A stretch of DNA of 55,863 bases from Candidatus Fimenecus sp. GTDB taxonomy: Bacteria > Bacillota > Clostridia > Oscillospirales > Acutalibacteraceae. Under the pieces are notes generated by a model that worked only from the letters and a program-made list of their open reading frames with translations, was not told the origin of the DNA and ran no database searches. The DNA is taken from assembly GCA_051881395.1 (NCBI GenBank), contig JBJEPU010000074.1, positions 1 through 55,863 on the forward strand. The letters are read 5' to 3'. Each line of letters begins with the position of its first letter. Within the stretch, counting starts at the first letter, position 1. Both the position numbers and the translations under genes were made by a program. Below are positions 28,614-55,863 of the stretch, piece after piece.

Positions 28614-28647
28614 ATAAAGGGACGGCAGTGCATCTGCCGTCCCTTTT
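28614..28647 (-). terminator. Rho-independent terminator after the holin gene
   Basis: gggacggcag (28619-28628) pairs with ctgccgtccc (28634-28643), a perfect 10-bp stem. T-rich flanks on both strands insulate the phage-like block from the glycan locus. Confidence 0.8.
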
Positions 28648-28662: not shown

Positions 28663-28914
28663 CTATTCTTCCTTTTTCATTTGCTTAACAATCTGATTGC
28701 CGTATACAGCCGCACCTGTAACCAGCACTCCCTGTACGACGGCGTCCGCGGATAAGCCCGCAAGTGCCAGCGTACCCGCCACACCGAATACCAGCAAAAT
28801 CAGCGGAATAAATTTATCGGGAATTTTTTCAAATCCCTTTAAAATCATACCGAGGATGTTTAAAGCCGGAATTAAAATCAGTGCGTTTTGTGTAATATAC
28901 TGCAAAAAATCCAT
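28663..28914 (-). CDS. Phage-type holin
   Basis: 83 aa with AGGAGG RBS, two to three TM segments and a charged C-terminus (KQMKKEE). It is the last gene of the lysis block. Confidence 0.7.
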   Translation of the reverse strand: MDFLQYITQNALILIPALNILGMILKGFEKIPDKFIPLILLVFGVAGTLALAGLSADAVVQGVLVTGAAVYGNQIVKQMKKEE

Positions 28915-28915
28915 T

Positions 28916-29191
28916 TCAGCCTCCTGTTTTCAAAAGCATCCAAATTGCGGTGCCAAGCGCCGTGCCGAATGCGGTTATCACAGCGATAATCAGTTTATCC
29001 CACAACCGAGCAGGACGCGTGCTGACTGCTTTAATGCTTTCTTTGAGCTCGCCCAAGGTGACGAGCATACTGTCGAGTTTTGTGTTCAGTTCGGCACTTG
29101 TCACAGCAAATCCGTTCACTTTGGAATATAGGTGTTTTACATCTGCTTCCAATGTTACAATTCTGTGTTCATACAAATCCTTTTCGGGCAT
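28916..29191 (-). CDS. XhlA-like lysis accessory membrane protein
   Basis: 91 aa with GAGGTGA RBS. The N-terminus is coiled-coil-like (LEADVKHLYSKVNG...LGELKESIKAV) and there is a single C-terminal TM segment, as in PBSX XhlA. Confidence 0.65.
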   Translation of the reverse strand: MPEKDLYEHRIVTLEADVKHLYSKVNGFAVTSAELNTKLDSMLVTLGELKESIKAVSTRPARLWDKLIIAVITAFGTALGTAIWMLLKTGG

Positions 29192-29195
29192 ACGC

Positions 29196-30077
29196 TCACC
29201 TCAAATCGGCTTTGTTGACATAGCCTGTGACATTTGCGGAAATCGGTGTTTTGCCTGCACGCTCGGGCGATGAAGTAATGCGGTATCTTCCGTTTATTTC
29301 CTTACCGTCATAGATATAAAAAGTACCCGATTTTCTTGCCGCCACCGTTTTTGCGGTCGCGGAAACATACAGCGGCGTGTTGCTGAGCGTCACCATCATT
29401 TTCGGGGTGAACGCTGGTGCGGGTGCAGTCGGCACAGAGGGTTTTTCCGTTTTGCGGTATCCGTTCAGACCGTTATTACGCATAATTTTCGGATAGTCCT
29501 TATAAGCGCAGTCTAAATCCACATTGCCTTTGATGCCGTTCACCTGCCCGCCGGAGGTGTATTGCCAAATCCCGTATGCGCGTTTACAGGTTGTTTCCTT
29601 TGCCCAATGTGCAAGCCAAATATCGTATTTTTCAAAGATATCCTCCCGCAGCTTGGTATTCAGCCACGCAAGGTTCATATAAACACTGACATAATAGCCG
29701 GCTTTCTCAAGTGTTTCACAAAATGCGGTAACGATTTCAGAAATTTCGTCTTTTGACAAATCCTTTTGGCTGTCGTCCTCTACATCATAACAAATCGGGA
29801 AATCAAAGACTTTTCCCTTGATAAGAGACAGGCAATATTCGGCTTCTGCCCTTGCCTGTTCCGCGTTTTTAGCGTAACTGTAATGATAGGCGCCGACAAA
29901 AAGCCCTGCCGCTTTTGCCTTGTGATAGTTTTGCGCAAAAGTTTTGTCTGTCTGTCCGGCAAATCTGCCGTACCCTGCACGCAGTATTGCAAACTGCACA
30001 CCGGACGCCTTTACCTTTTGCCAGTCTATATCGCCCTGCCATTTTGACACATCAATGCCATCATAAAGTTTTTCCAA
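29196..30077 (-). CDS. GH25 muramidase endolysin with C-terminal SH3b-like wall-binding domain
   Basis: TTG start with an AGGGAGGAA RBS. GIDVSKWQGDIDWQKVKASGVQFAILRAGYG is the GH25 signature. There is a Pro-rich linker (PSVPTAPAPAFTP) and then a ~65-aa beta-rich tail. Confidence 0.85.
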   Translation of the reverse strand: MEKLYDGIDVSKWQGDIDWQKVKASGVQFAILRAGYGRFAGQTDKTFAQNYHKAKAAGLFVGAYHYSYAKNAEQARAEAEYCLSLIKGKVFDFPICYDVEDDSQKDLSKDEISEIVTAFCETLEKAGYYVSVYMNLAWLNTKLREDIFEKYDIWLAHWAKETTCKRAYGIWQYTSGGQVNGIKGNVDLDCAYKDYPKIMRNNGLNGYRKTEKPSVPTAPAPAFTPKMMVTLSNTPLYVSATAKTVAARKSGTFYIYDGKEINGRYRITSSPERAGKTPISANVTGYVNKADLR

Positions 30078-30078
30078 G

Positions 30079-31734
30079 TTAAATTCCTCCCTGTTCTATT
30101 CTATTCTCCAAAGCCTTTATTCTTGCCTCTAAACCTTGCATTTCGCAAGAAATATCTGCCGCATACCAAACCTGTGCCGTGACCGTATCGTCGGCAATAT
30201 GCAACACACACGACGCATACGGAAATACAAGCGTCTTCGACTGTGCAGTTTCTTCCTCTTGCGGGACGGCAAGGCAGTAAATCACCGTAAACGGCGTGTT
30301 TTCCAGAGACAACTGCTGTAAATAGGCTGCAAACGCCTCGGGTGCCGCCTCTGCATAGACAATAACGGCTTGCTTGTCTGTGCCGAAATAAACACCCACA
30401 ACCGTTTCTCCGTTTTGCGGCAGGGTTTGCTCGTCTGTATTCGCCGAAATCGGGCTTTGCAAAGTCGGTGCAACACTGCAATACCCTACGGTTTCGCCGG
30501 ATTTTTTAGCCTTTCCCTGCGGCAATGGCAAGGTATAAGCATAAACGGTTCTTGCACCAATCCGCACCACAGACGGTTCGACGCCTGCTACTGCGCTCTC
30601 GGTCAGCGACATCGCGGCAGTATACCGATGCGTTTTTCCGTCAACAAAATCAAAATAATCCGCGACGCTTTCGCTGATACCGTAAAGCGGCTCAGAAAAT
30701 GTTTGACTGCACAGCAAAGACCTTGATGTTTCCATCAAGGTTAAGCCCGCCCAGTCATACGACAGGATTTCCGCATAGCGCGCTTGCGAAAGATAAATTC
30801 CCGTACTGCGAATGGAGGCAATCCCGCTCTCATCGGTTGTAAAGCAGATTTCTGTCAGGTTATTGATATCGTTTGTCGGATGGCAGAACAGTACAGAAGT
30901 GCTCCCGTATTCCAAAAAGGAGGTTGCGCGTTTCGATACGCCCGCATACAGTTTTGATAAAACATACTCGGTGTTCGGTTTCAGTTGCAACTGTATGGTT
31001 ACATAGTTTTTTTGCGCTTCGCCGAATGTATTGTAACGCGAACTGTCCAAAAACGGTTCCAACAGATTTTCGCCGAAGGTCAATTTCACTGCGGATACCG
31101 CCGCACCGCCGCGCGGGCGCACCGTAAGGGAGCGCATCTCCCCGCCTGTTCCCGCGCCGACAAGCGTCATACGGGTTGACCCGCTGACGCGATGAAAAAG
31201 CGGCAACCCGTAAAAATCTTCGTTTATTTTTGCGGCGATTTCGGTGCGGTCGGCATCGGTCAAAATATAAGCATCGCCTTTGTCGCCCTTTTCGCCTTTG
31301 AAGGTATTTTGCCGAATTGCCTCTAAAAGTTGGTTGACCGAAAACGCGTGATTTTCGTCAATCAGGCGGTCTGTATTTTCCAAAGCAGAAAAATACAGCC
31401 GCACGGTTTTCGCTTTAATCACCTGCTCGGTTTTGCCGTTATCGGCAATCTGCACGATATTAAACACGCAAAGCGCGGTCATTTGCGAAGTCACTTCCAC
31501 GGGTAAATCAACCATAATTTGATTGTTCTCGTCAGGCGTCAAATATTCTGTGCGTGCCGTGCCCGAAACGGTGACGAATTCCGCATAATACCGATATTCG
31601 GGTAAAATGAGGCTTTCTTCGAGTGTGAACACAAGTGCCGTGGCGTTGTGCTCATACATTTTGCCCGCCTGCAAAGTATCGGTTTGCACTTCGGGTGCGG
31701 CAGTCACCGCAACTTGTAAAATGTTTTGTTTCAT
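30079..31734 (-). CDS. Phage tail-fibre/baseplate-like protein (BppU-N-like N-terminus, short collagen-like triplets, C-terminal coiled coil); function unknown
   Basis: Start trimmed to MKQNILQV (ATGA overlap with the regulator stop). It has no signal peptide. It contains GEKGDKGDA G-X-Y triplets and ends in EMQGLEARIKALENRIEQ. Confidence 0.55.
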   Translation of the reverse strand: MKQNILQVAVTAAPEVQTDTLQAGKMYEHNATALVFTLEESLILPEYRYYAEFVTVSGTARTEYLTPDENNQIMVDLPVEVTSQMTALCVFNIVQIADNGKTEQVIKAKTVRLYFSALENTDRLIDENHAFSVNQLLEAIRQNTFKGEKGDKGDAYILTDADRTEIAAKINEDFYGLPLFHRVSGSTRMTLVGAGTGGEMRSLTVRPRGGAAVSAVKLTFGENLLEPFLDSSRYNTFGEAQKNYVTIQLQLKPNTEYVLSKLYAGVSKRATSFLEYGSTSVLFCHPTNDINNLTEICFTTDESGIASIRSTGIYLSQARYAEILSYDWAGLTLMETSRSLLCSQTFSEPLYGISESVADYFDFVDGKTHRYTAAMSLTESAVAGVEPSVVRIGARTVYAYTLPLPQGKAKKSGETVGYCSVAPTLQSPISANTDEQTLPQNGETVVGVYFGTDKQAVIVYAEAAPEAFAAYLQQLSLENTPFTVIYCLAVPQEEETAQSKTLVFPYASCVLHIADDTVTAQVWYAADISCEMQGLEARIKALENRIEQGGI

Positions 31735-32141
31735 TGGGTCCCTCCGAATTGTTGTAAAGTTTGATGAAAGGGTTTTGCGGGATTTACAAGGCTGAAATCC
31801 ATTAAAAAGGGATATTGTAAACACGCGCGCAGTTTAGAGTCCGCTTTTTGGGACAGTGTATAGACGCGCTGGCGTGTGATGCCGCAGGTGCGCGCCGCCT
31901 GTGACACGGAAACACCCTCCATAAACAGCAGTTTTGCAATACACCGTTCTTCGGCATTCAGCTCTGTTTCGAGTGCGTGGCGCACCAGCCGCCCCAAGGT
32001 ATCCGTTTTGCGTTGTACCACATATTTCGCCGCCGCGCCGTTCTTAAAATCCGCGGCTGTCAAGGGTTCAAAGCATTCGGACAAATACGCATAGTCCTCC
32101 CCCGACAACAAAATCGGCGTGTCGGGCATTTGCAAATTCAT
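31731..32141 (-). CDS. Sigma-70 region-4-like HTH regulator (Xpf/ArpU/small sigma-like class)
   Basis: Start trimmed to MNLQMPDT (AAGGAG RBS 7 nt upstream). LNAEERCIAKLLFMEGVSVSQAARTCGITRQRVYTLSQKADSKL matches the region-4 HTH pattern. Confidence 0.6.
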   Translation of the reverse strand: MNLQMPDTPILLSGEDYAYLSECFEPLTAADFKNGAAAKYVVQRKTDTLGRLVRHALETELNAEERCIAKLLFMEGVSVSQAARTCGITRQRVYTLSQKADSKLRACLQYPFLMDFSLVNPAKPFHQTLQQFGGTQ

Positions 32142-32161
32142 AGCATTCTCCTTTCGTTTGT

Positions 32162-32210
32162 AAAAGAAAACAACACCTATGTGCAGATTTTTCACTGCAA
32201 TAGGTGTTGT
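32162..32210 (-). terminator. Strong hairpin plus U-tract in the leader of the regulator gene (attenuator and/or clpC operon terminator)
   Basis: On the minus strand, acaacacctattgcag (32210-32195) pairs with ctgcacataggtgttgt (32186-32170), with one bulge. It is followed by TTTTCTTTT and ends about 10 nt before the RBS. Confidence 0.7.
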
Positions 32211-32240
32211 AATCGAACATTCGTTCGCCTTGCACTATTT

Positions 32241-32268
32241 ATTATAGGGATTTTTTAGATTCTGTCAA
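32241..32268 (-). promoter_or_regulatory. Near-consensus sigma-A promoter downstream of clpC
   Basis: On the minus strand: TTGACA (32268-32263), 16-nt spacer, TATAAT (32246-32241). Confidence 0.6.
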
Positions 32269-32294
32269 GAGGAAAAATCCGATTTGTGCAAAAC

Positions 32295-34760
32295 TTATTC
32301 GGTTGTTTCACTTACAGGTTCGGCAGAGATTTCACGAAACACGAATGTGTCGCCGTCCACGGTGCAAAGGTAGTGCTTATTCGCCTGCACATTGCCTTTG
32401 AGCATTTCTTCGGACAGCGCGTCCTCAATTTTGCTTTGAATGGCGCGTTTCAAGGGGCGCGCACCGTAGACCTCATCAAAGCCCGCGTCGGCGATTTTGT
32501 CGACCGCTTCGTCGGAAAAATCAACGGTTATATCGAGCGATGCCGTGCGCTGTTTCAAATTGTCAAGCAGACGTTTCGCGATTTCGCGGATTTCTTGCTT
32601 TTGCAAACGCTTAAACACGATAATGTCATCGACGCGGTTTAAAAACTCGGGACGGAAGGTGTTTTTGAGCTCACCCATGACCGCTTCTTTGATTTTTTCA
32701 TCGTTTTGTTCGCGTTCCTCGGCGCTGTCCGCAAAGCCGAATGCGGCTTGTTTCGCGGTAATCAGTTTTGCACCGACATTGGAAGTCATAATGATAATGC
32801 AGTTTTTGAAGTCCACGCGCCGCCCCTGGCTGTCGGTCAAAATGCCGTCATCGAGAATTTGCAACAGCATATTGAACACATCGGGGTGTGCTTTTTCGAT
32901 TTCATCAAACAGCACCACGGAATAGGGCTTTCTTCTGACCTTTTCCGTCAGTTGCCCGCCCTCGTCATAGCCGACATAACCGGGCGGCGAGCCGACAAGG
33001 CGCGAAACGGTGTGTTTTTCCATATATTCGGACATATCTAAGCGTATCATTGCGTTTTCGTCGCCGAACATTGCGGCGGCAAGCGCTTTGCAAAGCTCGG
33101 TTTTGCCCACACCCGTGGGACCTAAAAAGATGAACGAGCCAATCGGCTTTTTGGGGTCTTTCAAGCCCACTCTGCCGCGGCGAATGGCGCGGGATACGGC
33201 TTTGACGGCTTCCTCCTGCCCGACAATACGGCGGTGCAGTTCCTCCTCCATATGCAACAACCGTTCGCTTTCCTCGGTGGTCAGTTGGGTAATCGGAATT
33301 CCCGTCCACGAGGCGACAATTTCCGCAACCTCGGTTTCGCCGACTTCATCGCGACTGTGCCCCGTTTCTTTCAGCCACGCCTGCTGTTTGTTTTCGAGTT
33401 CCAGCGAAAGCTTGCGTTCTTCGTCCCGCAAGGCGGCGGCGCGTTCGAAGTCTTGCTTGTTGACTGCCGTCTGTTTTTCGGCTTCCAGTTCCTTTTTGCG
33501 CGTTTCCATTTCTTTGATGTCCGGCGGCGCTGTAAAGGTTTGTAGCCTTACGCGCGAAGCCGCTTCGTCTATCAAATCAATTGCCTTATCCGGAAGATAG
33601 CGGTCACCGATATAACGCGCAGACAGTTGTACTGCCGCGGTGATTGCCGCATCGGTAATTTTCACCTTATGGTGCGCCTCGTATTTGTCGCGGATACCTT
33701 TGAGGATTTCGACCGCTTCCTCCTCACTCGGTTCGCCGACGGTTATCGGCTGGAAACGGCGTTCGAGTGCGGCGTCCTTTTCAATGTTTTTGCGGTATTC
33801 TTCAATCGTTGTTGCACCGATAACCTGCAATTCCCCGCGCGCCAAAGAGGGCTTCAAAATATTGGCGGCGTCTACCGCACCCTCGGCACTGCCTGCACCG
33901 ATGAGGGTGTGCACCTCGTCGATAAACAGGATAATATCGTCCGACGCTTTGACTTCGTCAATGACCTTTTTAATGCGTTCCTCGAAGTCACCGCGGTATT
34001 TGGTGCCCGCGACCATACCCGTCAAATCGAGAGAGACAATTTTTTTATCTTTCAGCATTTCGGGCACTTCACCCGAAACGATTTTCAACGCCAACCCCTC
34101 GGCAATCGCGGTTTTGCCCACGCCGGGCTCGCCGATTAAGCAGGGGTTATTTTTGGTGCGGCGGCTCAAAATCTGAATAACGCGTTCAATTTCATTTTGC
34201 CGCCCGATGACGGGGTCGATTTTGCCGTCGCGCGCCAATTTCGTCAAATCGCGCCCGAACTGTGACAGCACCGCATCACCGTTTGCACCGTCGTCTGAGT
34301 CTGCCGCGCCGTTTTGCGGGGCACGCATCATATTTTTGGATAACTCGTTGACAATGTCACTTAGAGACGCACCGAACTGCCGCAGGATTTGTGCCGCCAC
34401 GCAGGATTGCTCGCGCACAATGGCAAGCAAGACATATTCCGTGCCGACCAGCGGCTGTCCCATACCGCGTGCCAAAGACGCGGCGGTTTCAATGATATTT
34501 TTACTGCGCGGGGTGAAATCGTCGGGCACAAGCTCGGTGGGCACACCGACGCCGACAGTCTGTTTGATATAGGTTTCGACTTGGTCGTAGGTGATTTTTT
34601 TATTCGCCAGCACCGCACCCGCAACGGTCGAAGTATCCGACAACAACCCTAAAAGCAGGTGCTCACTGCCGATGTAGGTATGCCCCAAATTTTCCGCCGC
34701 CGATACTGCGGCGTTTAAGGATTTATTGGCTTTTTCCGTAAAGCCCGTGAATTTAAACAT
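32295..34760 (-). CDS. clpC: ATP-dependent Clp protease ATP-binding subunit ClpC
   Basis: 821 aa with Clp_N repeats, two Walker A motifs ([20 protein letters not shown]) and a UVR linker ([11 protein letters not shown]). It is the last gene of the ctsR operon. Confidence 0.95.
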
Positions 34761-52864: not shown

Positions 52865-53596
52865 TTACACACTTCGACTGCCGTAATTGATATTCGCTTT
52901 ACGCGCCTGGCTGTGCTGTTCTTTACGCGGCACACGGTAGAGTTTGCCGTCCTTACGAAAGCGGGCGCCTGTTTGCTGAAAGAAAAAAGGTACATTTGCC
53001 GCAATGCACTGCGCGCGAATATCCAAAATCCATTGGTAATCGCACACGCGTGCGTCTTCGCCCGACTCCCCCGCCGCCGTCACGCCGCGAATTTCAGGCG
53101 TTAAAAATTCGGACAAGTCTATCGGGGTAAGCAACGGCGAACAGATGATTTCTTTATATTTCGCTTTTGCCGAAAGTAAGTACGGCAAACGGTAATCGGC
53201 GCGGTCTTGATTTTCCACGGTACAGCAAACCACCACATTGTCGTACCCGTCGCCCCAATCGGGCGGCAGGCATTTTGAGAAACGGTCAATGCGTTTGGTG
53301 ATAAACAAAAAGGTGCAGTCGCTTCGCGTTTTCATCATTTCCCACGCTTCCTCTCGCCAAACGTCGGCATCTTCCAACAGAAAATCCGATGTAAAACAGG
53401 TGTAAATAAGCGTACCTGCGGGGATTTTGTAATTGCCTTTGCGGTCTTTTTTGAGGGGCAGATTAAAATTTTGCGTTTTATAGACAGCACTGCTGTCGCG
53501 GTCATATTTCGCATCGGTTCGATAGACATAGCAATGTTTGCACCCCGTGCTGATTTTTTGACACCCGTGCCACAAATTCCAAGTCACCGATTGCAT
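52865..53596 (-). CDS. DUF5131 (phage Gp37/Gp68-like) three-Cys-motif protein
   Basis: AAGAGGAG RBS 12 nt after the uvrA stop. WNLWHGCQKISTGCKHCYVY is the family's N-terminal Cys motif. Confidence 0.7.
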   Translation of the reverse strand: MQSVTWNLWHGCQKISTGCKHCYVYRTDAKYDRDSSAVYKTQNFNLPLKKDRKGNYKIPAGTLIYTCFTSDFLLEDADVWREEAWEMMKTRSDCTFLFITKRIDRFSKCLPPDWGDGYDNVVVCCTVENQDRADYRLPYLLSAKAKYKEIICSPLLTPIDLSEFLTPEIRGVTAAGESGEDARVCDYQWILDIRAQCIAANVPFFFQQTGARFRKDGKLYRVPRKEQHSQARKANINYGSRSV

Positions 53597-53608
53597 AAGG
53601 CACTCCTC

Positions 53609-55863
53609 TTACTTCAACAGCGGTTTTAAATACTGCCCCGTATACGATTTTTTGCATTTGGCAATTTCCTCAGGCGTGCCTTCGGCGACCACCGTACCGC
53701 CGTTATCGCCGCCCTCGGGACCTAAATCGATAATATGGTCGGCGACTTTAATCACATCGAGATTGTGCTCAATCACGACTACGGTGTTGCCGCCGTCCAC
53801 AAGCTGCTGTAAAACATCAATTAAGCGGTGCACATCGGCGGTGTGCAAGCCTGTGGTGGGCTCGTCCAAAATATAAATCGTTCTGCCCGTGGGGCGGCGC
53901 GAAAGCTCGGTGGCGAGTTTGACGCGCTGTGCTTCACCGCCCGAAAGCGTCGTGGCGGGTTGCCCGAGTTTCACATAGCCTAAGCCCACATCGTAAATGG
54001 TTTTCAGTTTGCGGTAGATTTTCGGAATGTTCTCAAAAAAGCCCATTGCCTCTTCAATGGTCATTTCCAAAACATCGTAAATGGATTTGCCCTTGTATTT
54101 GACCTCCAAGGTTTCGCGGTTAAAGCGTGCGCCTTTGCACACATCGCACGGCACATAGACATCTGCCAAAAAGTGCATTTCGATTTTCACAATCCCGTCG
54201 CCTTGGCACGCCTCGCACCGCCCGCCTTTGACATTGAATGAAAAGCGGCTGGCGGAAAATCCGTGCATTTTGGCTTCCTGCGTTTGGGCAAACAGATTGC
54301 GAATATCGGTAAATACGCCCGTATATGTCGCGGGATTGGAACGCGGCGTTCTGCCGATAGGCGACTGGTCAATATCGACCACTTTATCAAGATATTCCAG
54401 CCCCAAAATGTCCTTATGCTTCCCGACGGGCTTTTTCGCGCCGTTTAACTCGTTTGCAAGGCGCTTATACAAAATTTCATTGACAAGCGAGGATTTGCCC
54501 GATCCGGAAACACCCGTCACGGCAACGAATTTGCCCAATGGGAAACGGACATCAATGTTTTTCAGGTTGTTTTCCGCCGCAGAGCGCACCACCAATTCCT
54601 TGCCGTTGCCTGCGCGGCGGGTTTCGGGCACCGAAATTTTGCGTTTGCCGCTTAAATACTGCCCGGTAATCGAGTCGGGGCAGTTTTTAATGTCCTCCAC
54701 CGTGCCCGCACAAACCACTTCCCCGCCGTGCACGCCTGCGCCCGGGCCGATATCCACAATATAATCGGCGGCATACATGGTGTCCTCATCATGCTCGACC
54801 ACAATCAGTGTATTGCCGAGGTCGCGCAGGTGTTTTAAAGTGCCGATGAGTTTTTCATTGTCGCGCTGGTGAAGCCCGATGCTCGGCTCGTCCAAAATAT
54901 ACAAAACGCCCATAAGAGATGAACCGATTTGCGTCGCCAAGCGAATCCGCTGACTTTCACCGCCCGAAAGTGTGCCTGCCGAACGGGAAAGCGTTAAATA
55001 TTCTAAGCCCACGCTTGATAAAAACTGTAACCGACTGCGGATTTCCTTTAAAATCTGCGTACCGATGACCTGCTCGCGTTCGGAAAGCTGTAAGCCGTCT
55101 AAAAAAGCCAATTCCTTGACAATTGACATTTGCGTAAATTCAAAAATATTGATACCGCCGACCGTCACCGACAGTGAAATCGGTTTCAAGCGTGCACCGT
55201 GGCAGTCGGGGCAATCGCAGGCTTTCATCACCTGTTCGATTTCCCAACGCGACCACTCGCTGGTGGACTCCTTGTAGCGGCGCTCCAAGTTGTTGATAAT
55301 CCCCTCAAATTCGGCATTGTAACTGCCCGTGCCGTACACATTGGTGCGCTGCATTTTGAGTTTCTCGCCCTTTGTACCGTATAACAGCGCGTCTAACGCC
55401 GCTTTCGACAGGTCACAAATCGGGGTATCTAAGGTGAATTTATATTTTTTGCCGAGCGCTTCATAGTACATTTGCGCAATGGTGCCGCCCTCGGCATTTG
55501 TCCAGCCGCTGGCGCGAATAGCACCGTCGCGGATAGACAGTTTTTTGTTCGGAATGACCAAATCGGGGTCAACCTTCATAAACACGCCCAAGCCCGTGCA
55601 GGTATCGCACGCGCCGAACGGATTGTTAAAGGAAAACATACGGGGCGTCAGTTCGTCAATCGACGCGCCGTGTTCGGGGCAAGCATAGTTCTGTGAAAAG
55701 AGCATATCCTCGCCGTCTAAAATATTGACAAGCACCGTGCCGCCCGTCAATGCGGTGGCAGTTTCCACGGAGTCCGCCAAGCGGCTGCGAATGCCGTCGT
55801 CCAAAACCAAACGGTCTACGACAATTTCAATCGTATGCTTAATGTTTTTGTCGAGCTTGATTT
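53609..55863 (-). CDS. uvrA: Excinuclease ABC subunit A (UvrA), N-terminal part outside window
   Basis: The frame is open to the window edge. It has the [11 protein letters not shown] Walker A, LSGGE signatures ([23 protein letters not shown]) and zinc-finger Cys pairs. Confidence 0.95.

Follow-up and report, generated by a model that had tools for sequence, protein, structure and literature searches.

A phage-derived fibre and lysis operon with predicted SOS control, conserved in Candidatus Fimenecus and relatives

The five genes and their products

The DNA stretch analysed here (below, the window) comprises 55,863 nt of Candidatus Fimenecus sp. (assembly GCA_051881395.1, contig JBJEPU010000074.1, positions 1-55,863 of the forward strand). 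Between clpC and a surface-glycan locus it carries a module of five phage-type genes, which encode, in the order of transcription, a small regulator, a fibre protein, a GH25 muramidase, an XhlA-like membrane protein and a holin (Table 1). All five open reading frames (ORFs) were found on the minus strand within 28663-32141, exactly where an original prediction, made from the sequence alone, had placed them, and the tight spacing described there was reproduced: the regulator stop and the fibre start share an ATGA overlap (31731-31734), and the further gaps amount to 1, 4 and 1 nt. The promoter and the 3' terminator attributed to the block were likewise recovered, the latter as a strong stem, though one followed by three T residues only; the 63-nt segment around this hairpin folds at -28.5 kcal/mol. 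Elsewhere in the window, where that prediction had recognised no integrase, repressor, packaging or virion gene, Pfam scans of 20 further ORFs at both window ends, which proved to be sugar, transport and repair genes, revealed no gene for an integrase, terminase, portal, capsid or tail protein.

Table 1. Coordinates of the module features in the window
Feature	Position	Strand	Remarks
Regulator gene	31731-32141	-	136 aa; true ATG at 32141, AAAGGAG ahead
Fibre protein gene	30079-31734	-	551 aa
Fibre N-terminal docking domain, BppU_N-like beta-sandwich	31300-31734	-	residues ~1-145
Collagen-like G-X-Y hinge GEKGDKGDA	31270-31296	-	residues 147-155
Fibre variable C-terminal part, presumed glycan-binding head	30079-31269	-	AlphaFold2 (AF2) model and identity drop
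GH25 muramidase (endolysin) gene	29196-30077	-	293 aa; PF01183
XhlA-like small membrane protein gene	28916-29191	-	91 aa; weak PF10779, PHROG 937
Holin gene, Hol44 family (Phage_holin_5_2)	28663-28914	-	83 aa; PF16079
Predicted sigmaA-type promoter	32241-32268	-	TTGACA 32268-32263, 16-nt spacer, TATAAT 32246-32241
Predicted LexA (SOS) operator CGAACGAATGTTCG	32214-32227	-	GAAC-N4-GTTC match
Leader terminator-like hairpin	32160-32210	-	AACACCUAUUGCAG...CUGCACAUAGGUGUU then GUUUUCUUUU; RNA fold
Operon 3' terminator hairpin	28619-28643	-	10-bp GC-rich stem

Judged by its predicted fold, the 551-aa protein, formerly described as tail-fibre-like, is a true phage fibre, in which a collagen-like hinge joins a BppU-type docking domain to a beta-sandwich head. 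Sequence searches gave it no match in Pfam (E<=0.1) or PHROG (E<=0.01), and a PDB profile search returned no solved structure. With the AF2 model, built on 39 homologues (predicted local distance difference test, pLDDT, 84), Foldseek aligned the N-terminal domain (N-domain) to that of TP901-1 BppU (3uh8; E=5e-5, probability 1.0, TMt 0.61) and to the TP901-1 baseplate (4v96; E=1.5e-7), as well as to chains of the 80alpha and NF5 baseplate structures. Matches in BFVD comprised gut-phage tail fibres, 'BppU domain' proteins, collagen-repeat proteins, lactococcal neck passage structures and a Clostridium podovirus virion protein, the docking fold being common to many fibres of gut siphoviruses, podoviruses and myoviruses, to neck passage structures and to head fibres. 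The likeness to TP901-1 BppU includes the N-terminal beta-sandwich docking fold, the trimeric linker and a distal domain; the fibre differs from it in having neither a Pfam BppU_N sequence match nor a Dit/baseplate partner nearby, and its distal part is a variable head, not an adaptor for a separate receptor-binding protein. The hinge region reads FKGEKGDKGDA, and relatives carry longer GXY runs, with PF01391. Beyond the hinge, the model places a helix, beta-sandwich domains and a terminal coiled-coil helix, most of them at pLDDT above 90. The N-terminus of the protein (MKQNILQVAVTAAPEV...) has no charged n-region and no hydrophobic core.

Homologues of the fibre come almost entirely from metagenomic Clostridia labelled Candidatus Fimenecus, and no relative of its N-domain was found in the IMG/VR viral contigs. 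Distant relatives of this domain (29-33% identity) occur in real phage contexts. At one contig end (locus L093; JAZSWB010000011.1, 1-11112) a gene for a CI-type repressor is followed by small ORFs and by genes for TerL, a major head protein (PHROG 422), a P22-like portal and proteins of 740 and 309 aa. This podovirus-like block ends in a 206-aa distant relative of the N-domain and resembles the published description of operon I of FpGTA, the gene transfer agent of Faecalibacterium, with a fibre still attached.

The regulator is a helix-turn-helix protein resembling region 4 of sigma-70 factors: its Pfam, NCBIfam and PDB-profile matches are confined to that region, and its AF2 model is superimposed by Foldseek on many sigma-4 domains at a root-mean-square deviation of ~1 A over 55-65 residues. 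Region 2 was not found in it by Pfam, NCBIfam, PDB profiles or Foldseek, so that the regulator cannot represent a full TcdR/UviA-type sigma factor, and the likeness to such factors suggested in the original prediction is not supported. Its C-terminal tail is very conserved (YPFLMDFSLVNPxKPF), and no member of the family was detected in the IMG/VR viral contigs. The possibility that the protein is a small terminase, raised by a weak Terminase_5 match (E=0.06), was dropped, all structural matches being sigma-4 domains; the 134-aa protein encoded ahead of the terminase gene in the L093 prophage proved unrelated to the regulator as well.

The lysis genes are of common phage types. The GH25 muramidase matched PF01183 (E=6e-38, 131 bits against a cut-off of 27) and the endolysin family PHROG 291 (E=1e-54), and its C-terminal module of ~65 aa, presumed to bind the wall, corresponds to the C-terminal part of the phage endolysin family PHROG 15001. 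The XhlA-like protein matched PF10779 weakly (18.8 bits against a cut-off of 34.7, E=0.002) and PHROG 937 at E=3e-5; it consists of an N-terminal coiled coil and, by hydropathy, one C-terminal transmembrane segment (residues ~66-88). The holin matched PF16079 (E=2e-19, 69.9 bits against a cut-off of 29.2) and PHROG 1129 (E=4e-24), with hydrophobic segments at residues ~9-29 and 30-70. None of the five proteins matched an anti-phage defence model of PADLOC at E<=0.1, and no Rfam family was matched in the module and its leader.

Conservation, chromosomal contexts and exchange of the fibre head

Relatives were gathered by scanning one genome per GTDB species with the fibre N-terminal domain; 80 loci were kept, and, the survey being anchored on the fibre gene, its counts cover fibre carriers. 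The loci were compared by tblastn and gene clustering, with ORFs picked by codon score, and the flanks were inspected over +/-10 kb around the module at ~90 loci. Every locus with enough DNA carried genes for the regulator, the fibre, GH25, a small membrane protein and a holin, co-directional and packed, the regulator gene being first in all of them. The module was intact in ~75 of the 80 species-level loci, and the rest were cut by contig ends.

Three chromosomal contexts recurred, and in two of them a glycan locus adjoins the module. Context A, that of the window, places the module after clpC and ahead of the glycan locus: contigs whose fibre homologues have 77%, 50%, 42% or 35% identity show ctsR-mcsA-mcsB-clpC and then the five genes, as does a contig encoding a variant of 346 aa; a glycan locus starting with Bac_transf comes next, except in the 35% case (L010). 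In context B the module follows a different housekeeping block, again ahead of a glycan locus, and in context C, the largest group, it lies beside the rimP-nusA-infB operon and has an extra 77-aa coiled-coil gene between those for the regulator and the fibre. Over the loci concerned (L012, L042-L092; e.g. L054:662-901) the product of this extra gene measures 74-106 aa and its place is always the same; no PHROG match was found for it, and the one member compared with Pfam gave a sub-threshold match only. Contexts B and D encode a different small transmembrane protein (PHROG 1863) ahead of GH25, and the XhlA-like gene after GH25 is missing there.

Two further records are of note. One short metagenomic contig (L101; RHMF01049199.1, 352-2209) has the GH25 gene directly after the 77-aa gene and no fibre gene, and keeps the regulator, the XhlA-like gene, the holin and the promoter with its LexA box. 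The only 'phage' record with the module is a 23-kb entry, 'UNVERIFIED: Bacteriophage sp.' (L001; MT835647.1, 1-23196), at whose left end the five genes stand; it is probably a misfiled bacterial contig, because several of the other ORFs on it group with glycosyltransferase genes found in the glycan loci.

The neighbours of the module in close relatives were, like those in the window, free of phage hallmark genes by Pfam annotation. Genes for terminase, portal, capsid, tape-measure protein or integrase were found in the flanks of none of the surveyed loci, and both Dit, Tal and tape-measure genes and the hallmark genes of tailocins (tail tube, sheath, tape-measure, baseplate) were absent from the window and from all flanks.

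Selection was gauged by pairwise ratios of non-synonymous to synonymous substitution (dN/dS, Nei-Gojobori, each relative against the window). They amounted to 0.05-0.30 for the regulator, 0.07-0.22 for the fibre N-domain, ~0.1 for GH25, 0.05-0.25 for the XhlA-like protein and 0.04-0.19 for the holin; the fibre head gave 0.17 in a single unsaturated comparison within the same head type, and the reference genes ClpC and McsB gave 0.03-0.11. Identity to the window ranges within context A from 48 to 97% for the regulator; the N-domain is 54-92% identical across the clpC-context loci and 40-92% across the family, and the holin 60-92% across all loci. By these ratios, all five genes are under long-term purifying selection. 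The comparison as a whole supports the view that the module is domesticated and vertically inherited, rather than the debris of a decaying prophage. The earlier suspicion that the block is more than debris was thus borne out by the synteny and dN/dS comparisons proposed along with it: in ~80 species the block is intact, sits at fixed sites, is free of other phage genes and is under purifying selection, the site holds a complete prophage in no relative within the clade, and the block shows neither sporadic occurrence nor frameshifts.

The fibre head stands apart. Its identity to that of the window is 28-75% in relatives whose ClpC is 81-97% identical, and other lineages carry non-homologous heads, the whole protein measuring 245-861 aa, some with long collagen repeats and some with SGNH esterase domains. 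The nucleotide identity of loci L009 and L011 is 95.4% over the left flank and the first ~450 nt of the fibre gene; the heads cannot be aligned, identity across GH25, XhlA and holin is 89.7%, and the glycan locus is again largely unalignable. Between the window and L013 identity is 92% on the left, breaks 499 nt into the fibre gene and is 72.5% across the lysis genes. On these alignments the head is exchanged by recombination exactly at the collagen-like hinge, the breakpoints falling ~450-500 nt into the gene. Synonymous divergence of the window from L013, L006, L017 and L018 is ~0.3-0.6 in clpC, mcsB, the regulator and the fibre N-domain, and 0.6-2.2, mostly above 1, in GH25, XhlA and holin; this jump, within window 28663-31300, implies that the lysis genes, too, have been exchanged between species, besides the fibre head and the glycan locus.

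With ClpC controlled for, loci more alike in the fibre head were also more alike over the initial 6 kb of the glycan locus (partial Mantel r=0.33, p=0.0016; 17 non-redundant context-A loci). The corresponding values were r=0.10 (p=0.20) for the intervening GH25 gene and, weakly, r=0.20 (p=0.04) for the holin gene. The head type thus appears to tend to switch together with the adjacent surface-glycan locus, which is suggestive rather than proven, because the glycan measure is crude and counter-examples exist (L022 and L024, with similar heads and different glycan starts).

Elsewhere in the window (52865-55810) a DUF5131 gene stands beside that of a UvrA-like paralogue (733 aa) in which a UvrA DNA-binding domain is combined with an ABC ATPase; the two genes have no apparent link to the module.

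The control region

The promoter of the module agrees with the consensus at 12 of 12 positions (TTGACA-16-TATAAT), and among the 82 related loci with enough upstream DNA, on which the counts of this section are based, all but one have an equivalent TTGACA-16/17-TAnAAT promoter (81/82). A LexA box, CGAACGAATGTTCG, begins 14 nt downstream of the -10 hexamer, so that the transcript start is predicted to be covered by it. Neither this box nor the leader hairpin described below had been noticed in the original prediction. The exact pattern CGAAC-N4-GTTCG occurs once in the whole window, namely at the module promoter. GAAC-N4-GTTC is present at the promoter in 68 of the 82 loci, in 62 of these exactly at +14, and over all loci 88 such boxes were observed against ~21 expected by chance. 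The LexA operator of Bacillus and Clostridium is the same motif, and the 22-bp recA operator fragment used in a study of Clostridioides difficile LexA contains GAACAAATGTTT (PMC4234289). The right half-site is lost in contexts B and D. In one locus (L039:9480-9600) it is the promoter spacer (TTGACAtaGAACAAATGTTCgTCTAAAAT), and not position +14, that contains the box, while a GCGAGTGAAC motif is retained downstream of the -10 hexamer, as if LexA control had been arrived at independently a second time.

Between the LexA operator and the ribosome-binding site of the regulator gene lies, in all lineages, a stable terminator-like hairpin with a T-run behind it, and the leader of the window folds at -32.8 kcal/mol (z=-4.9 against shuffled sequences). 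A hairpin followed by a T-tract, with a folding free energy of at most -10 kcal/mol, occurs at the equivalent place in 77 of the 82 loci. The outer stem ACACCU/AGGUGU and the GUUUU behind it are invariant throughout contexts A, B and D, where the inner stem and loop differ yet always pair; the stems of the context C leader are unrelated to those of the other contexts. A covariation test covered nine pairs, with one compensatory change, all within the invariant outer stem; the variable inner stems defeated alignment by MAFFT, and the hairpin is therefore supported by folding each sequence separately. The 3' half of the stem with its tail, AGGUGUUGUUUU (window 32160-32180), is sequence-invariant in contexts A, B and D despite the differing inner stems, which suggests that the sequence, and not the structure alone, is recognised by something. 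In the window fold the U-tract can also pair with the Shine-Dalgarno sequence of the regulator.

clpC ends ~25 nt ahead of the -35 element of the module (32269-32297) without a terminator of its own. Transcripts running on from the heat-shock-induced ctsR-clpC operon are here probably halted by the leader hairpin as well. That the hairpin is merely the clpC terminator was rejected as the whole story: it is kept in contexts B to D, where the upstream gene has its own terminator, and it therefore belongs to the module. With an operator over the transcription start and an attenuator behind it, the operon appears to be gated twice, and LexA plus the leader terminator appear to constitute the primary switch. 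At the other end of the operon, 73 of 77 loci have a strong hairpin no more than 110 nt from the stop codon of the holin gene.

Possible functions and relation to known systems

By its gene content and conservation, the module belongs with domesticated phage-derived fibre/lysis operons. The explanation we tentatively prefer, with a confidence somewhat short of even, is that the operon is the DNA-damage-triggered fibre and lysis arm of a domesticated phage-particle system, the other genes of which lie elsewhere in the chromosome. In undamaged cells LexA would block the promoter, and the leader terminator would halt most of the leaky transcripts; upon DNA damage LexA would be cleaved and read-through transcripts would build up. 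The sigma-4-like protein might then reinforce expression by anti-termination or activation, both here and at the unlinked particle genes. The trimeric fibre would dock by its N-domain onto short-tailed particles, the holin, the XhlA-like protein and GH25 would lyse the producer cell, and the freed particles would bind cells showing the matching surface glycan.

The template for this model is the two-locus FpGTA, a podovirus-like gene transfer agent of Faecalibacterium prausnitzii encoded in two operons ~125 kb apart, of which operon I comprises the terminase, portal and capsid genes and operon II, of 5.5 kb, those for a baseplate, a tail fibre, a presumed receptor-binding protein, a holin and an endolysin (PMC12946183). 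Like locus II, the module belongs to gut Clostridia (by family labels) and is a small, genus-conserved chromosomal operon of fibre/receptor-binding protein, holin and endolysin genes set apart from head genes. Unlike it, the module has its own regulator, LexA box and leader terminator, and no head operon was seen here; the two were compared by gene content. Gene transfer agent clusters are, moreover, driven by a dedicated activator and anti-termination (PMC11150451). The docking domain, with the fold by which phage fibres are attached to baseplates and necks, is far better conserved than the head, which implies a conserved partner, and such a partner is not obviously among the other four gene products. 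The split system is preferred because this domain is the best-conserved part of the fibre, because its distant relatives sit on short-tailed phage modules and because FpGTA provides a precedent; with the docking domain kept and two loci known in FpGTA, the particle genes may simply lie outside the window. Co-switching of head and glycan is what a particle targeting its own kind would need, as its head would have to track the glycan type of the producer.

Several considerations weigh against a split particle system. Its second locus is pure inference, and no head, packaging or tail-tube gene lies in the 56-kb window or near the ~90 loci inspected. Whereas FpGTA locus II includes a baseplate gene, the module has none, and no Faecalibacterium locus with the fibre family was among the 80 that the genome scan retained. 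No second operon sharing the promoter/LexA motif came to light, the metagenome scan with the DNA pattern, a weak test, returning eight matches, all of them copies of the module. The regulator is encoded downstream of the terminator that it would need to overcome, and the lysis part can persist alone, as the contig devoid of a fibre gene implies.

Other phage-derived systems offer partial parallels. PBSX of Bacillus subtilis, domesticated and non-infectious, has a late end, xkdV...xepA-xhlA-xhlB-xlyA, which is switched on by Xpf after SOS induction. The module resembles this end in the succession of a fibre and then an XhlA-type protein, holin and lysin, in its (here predicted) link to SOS and in a small sigma-related factor. 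PBSX, however, spans ~28 kb without interruption and includes head and contractile-tail genes, whereas five genes only are present here, the lysin is a GH25 enzyme and not an amidase, the order is lysin-XhlA-holin, and the regulator has region 4 only. Tailocins of the PBSX, diffocin and monocin type have contiguous tube, sheath, tape-measure and baseplate genes, which are absent here. In the AlpR-AlpA-alpBCDE self-lysis pathway of Pseudomonas aeruginosa and in GafYZ control of the Caulobacter gene transfer agent, DNA damage or derepression acts through a small DNA-binding factor and terminator read-through on lysis or particle genes. AlpA is discussed as an anti-terminator in the work on GafYZ of the Caulobacter gene transfer agent (PMC11150451). 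What the module shares with AlpA and GafYZ is the logic; here the terminator precedes the regulator gene, and anti-termination is our proposal.

Second in probability, and in our judgement doubtful, is a self-contained release module: SOS-induced lysis of some cells would set free the trimeric fibre as sole cargo, which would act on neighbours in the manner of a lectin, as bacteriocin or agglutinin, or modify glycans enzymatically (the SGNH variants), or coat kin cells and so mask their phage-receptor glycan. The compact operon with its own promoter, operator, attenuator and terminator, near which nothing phage-like was seen at ~90 loci, argues for it, as do the covariation of the head type with the cell's own glycan locus, the SGNH esterase domains on some heads and the absence of both the fibre N-domain and the regulator family from the IMG/VR viral contigs. 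Colicin operons, which join an SOS box, a toxin gene and a lysis gene, count in the same direction. The layout also parallels SOS-controlled bacteriocin loci such as uviA-uviB-bcn of Clostridium perfringens (BCN5), which is UV-inducible and has a LexA site (PMC4459074, PMC4885068). With BCN5, and with the PaLoc of Clostridioides difficile (tcdR, toxin genes, tcdE holin, tcdL), the module shares a sigma-related regulator, a cargo and a holin-like release gene; UviA and TcdR, however, are full group-5 sigma factors of ~180-190 aa with regions 2 and 4, as against 136 aa and region 4 only. Its cargo, moreover, is a phage fibre and not a toxin, its endolysin is complete, and it is chromosomal and clade-wide, not borne on a plasmid or an island. 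A killing mechanism is known for no fibre lacking a toxin or a particle, the strongly conserved baseplate-docking domain would be unexplained unless a new partner had been gained, for the regulator no target other than its own operon would be evident, and FpGTA shows that fibre/lysis loci can look orphan yet serve a larger system.

Rather unlikely, though worth stating, is clade-wide altruistic lysis triggered by SOS, the only product of which would be a free fibre, with neither particle nor toxin domain, matched to the producer's glycan. Such a fibre might coat or agglutinate neighbours or modify their glycan, resulting in the masking of a phage receptor or in kin discrimination, and would be a public good or a weapon made of fibre alone; the LexA operator, the leader terminator and the sigma-4-like protein as anti-terminator would form a positive feedback.

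We consider it improbable that the fibre is a host-encoded accessory to resident prophages, fired together with them upon SOS induction, which would join virions or compete for their docking sites and so retarget or poison them as a population-level defence. The spread of the docking fold over gut phage fibres, neck passage structures and head fibres, the coincidence of the predicted SOS timing with prophage induction and the hypervariable, recombination-exchanged heads would fit. This idea leaves the operon's own complete lysis cassette and regulator unexplained, no PADLOC defence model was matched, and the N-domain is conserved clade-wide against the diversity expected of infecting phages. 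Still less credible is non-lytic export by holin and muramidase, similar to type 10 secretion, by which the fibre would reach the cell's own surface and bind the glycan of the adjacent locus as an adhesin or appendage. A holin, a peptidoglycan hydrolase and a cargo with no recognisable signal peptide do share one locus, which adjoins a glycan locus in two of three contexts, and holin-dependent non-lytic secretion is documented in reviews (PMC9527704). The lysin, however, has the full length of a canonical phage-type GH25 endolysin and bears a further C-terminal module, whereas TcdL is a degenerate fragment; the predicted LexA control suits a terminal damage-triggered event better than routine surface assembly; and in the largest clade, that of the infB context, the module is not beside a glycan locus. 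A neutral remnant of a prophage right arm in which decay has not yet begun would account for the order of fibre and then lysis genes, usual at the end of Firmicutes phage late operons, and for distant homologues in real prophages, and is effectively refuted by the comparative data, with ~75 of 80 loci intact in three fixed contexts, dN/dS of 0.03-0.3 for every gene and promoter, operator, attenuator and terminator all conserved, so that we give it next to no weight.

No description was found in the literature of the four features in combination, that is, a LexA box at +14, a promoter-proximal terminator ahead of a sigma-4-only regulator, a clade-wide five-gene fibre/lysis unit and hinge-targeted head swapping beside a glycan locus. 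The surprising aspects are the regulatory architecture and the coupling of fibre and glycan. A consensus promoter with a fixed LexA box at +14 and a leader terminator before a sigma-4-only protein may serve as a model for how a lethal operon is silenced and then committed. If the operon is indeed one arm of a split particle system, a multi-locus phage-particle system would have been domesticated in another, independent lineage of gut Clostridia besides that of FpGTA, and the operon would show how a receptor-binding head stays matched to the rapidly switching surface glycan of its host; a self-contained module would amount to an SOS-driven release system of a new kind. Orphan lysis cassettes in metagenome-assembled genomes should accordingly not be dismissed as debris, and either way the module marks phage-derived functions in an abundant, uncultured gut genus.

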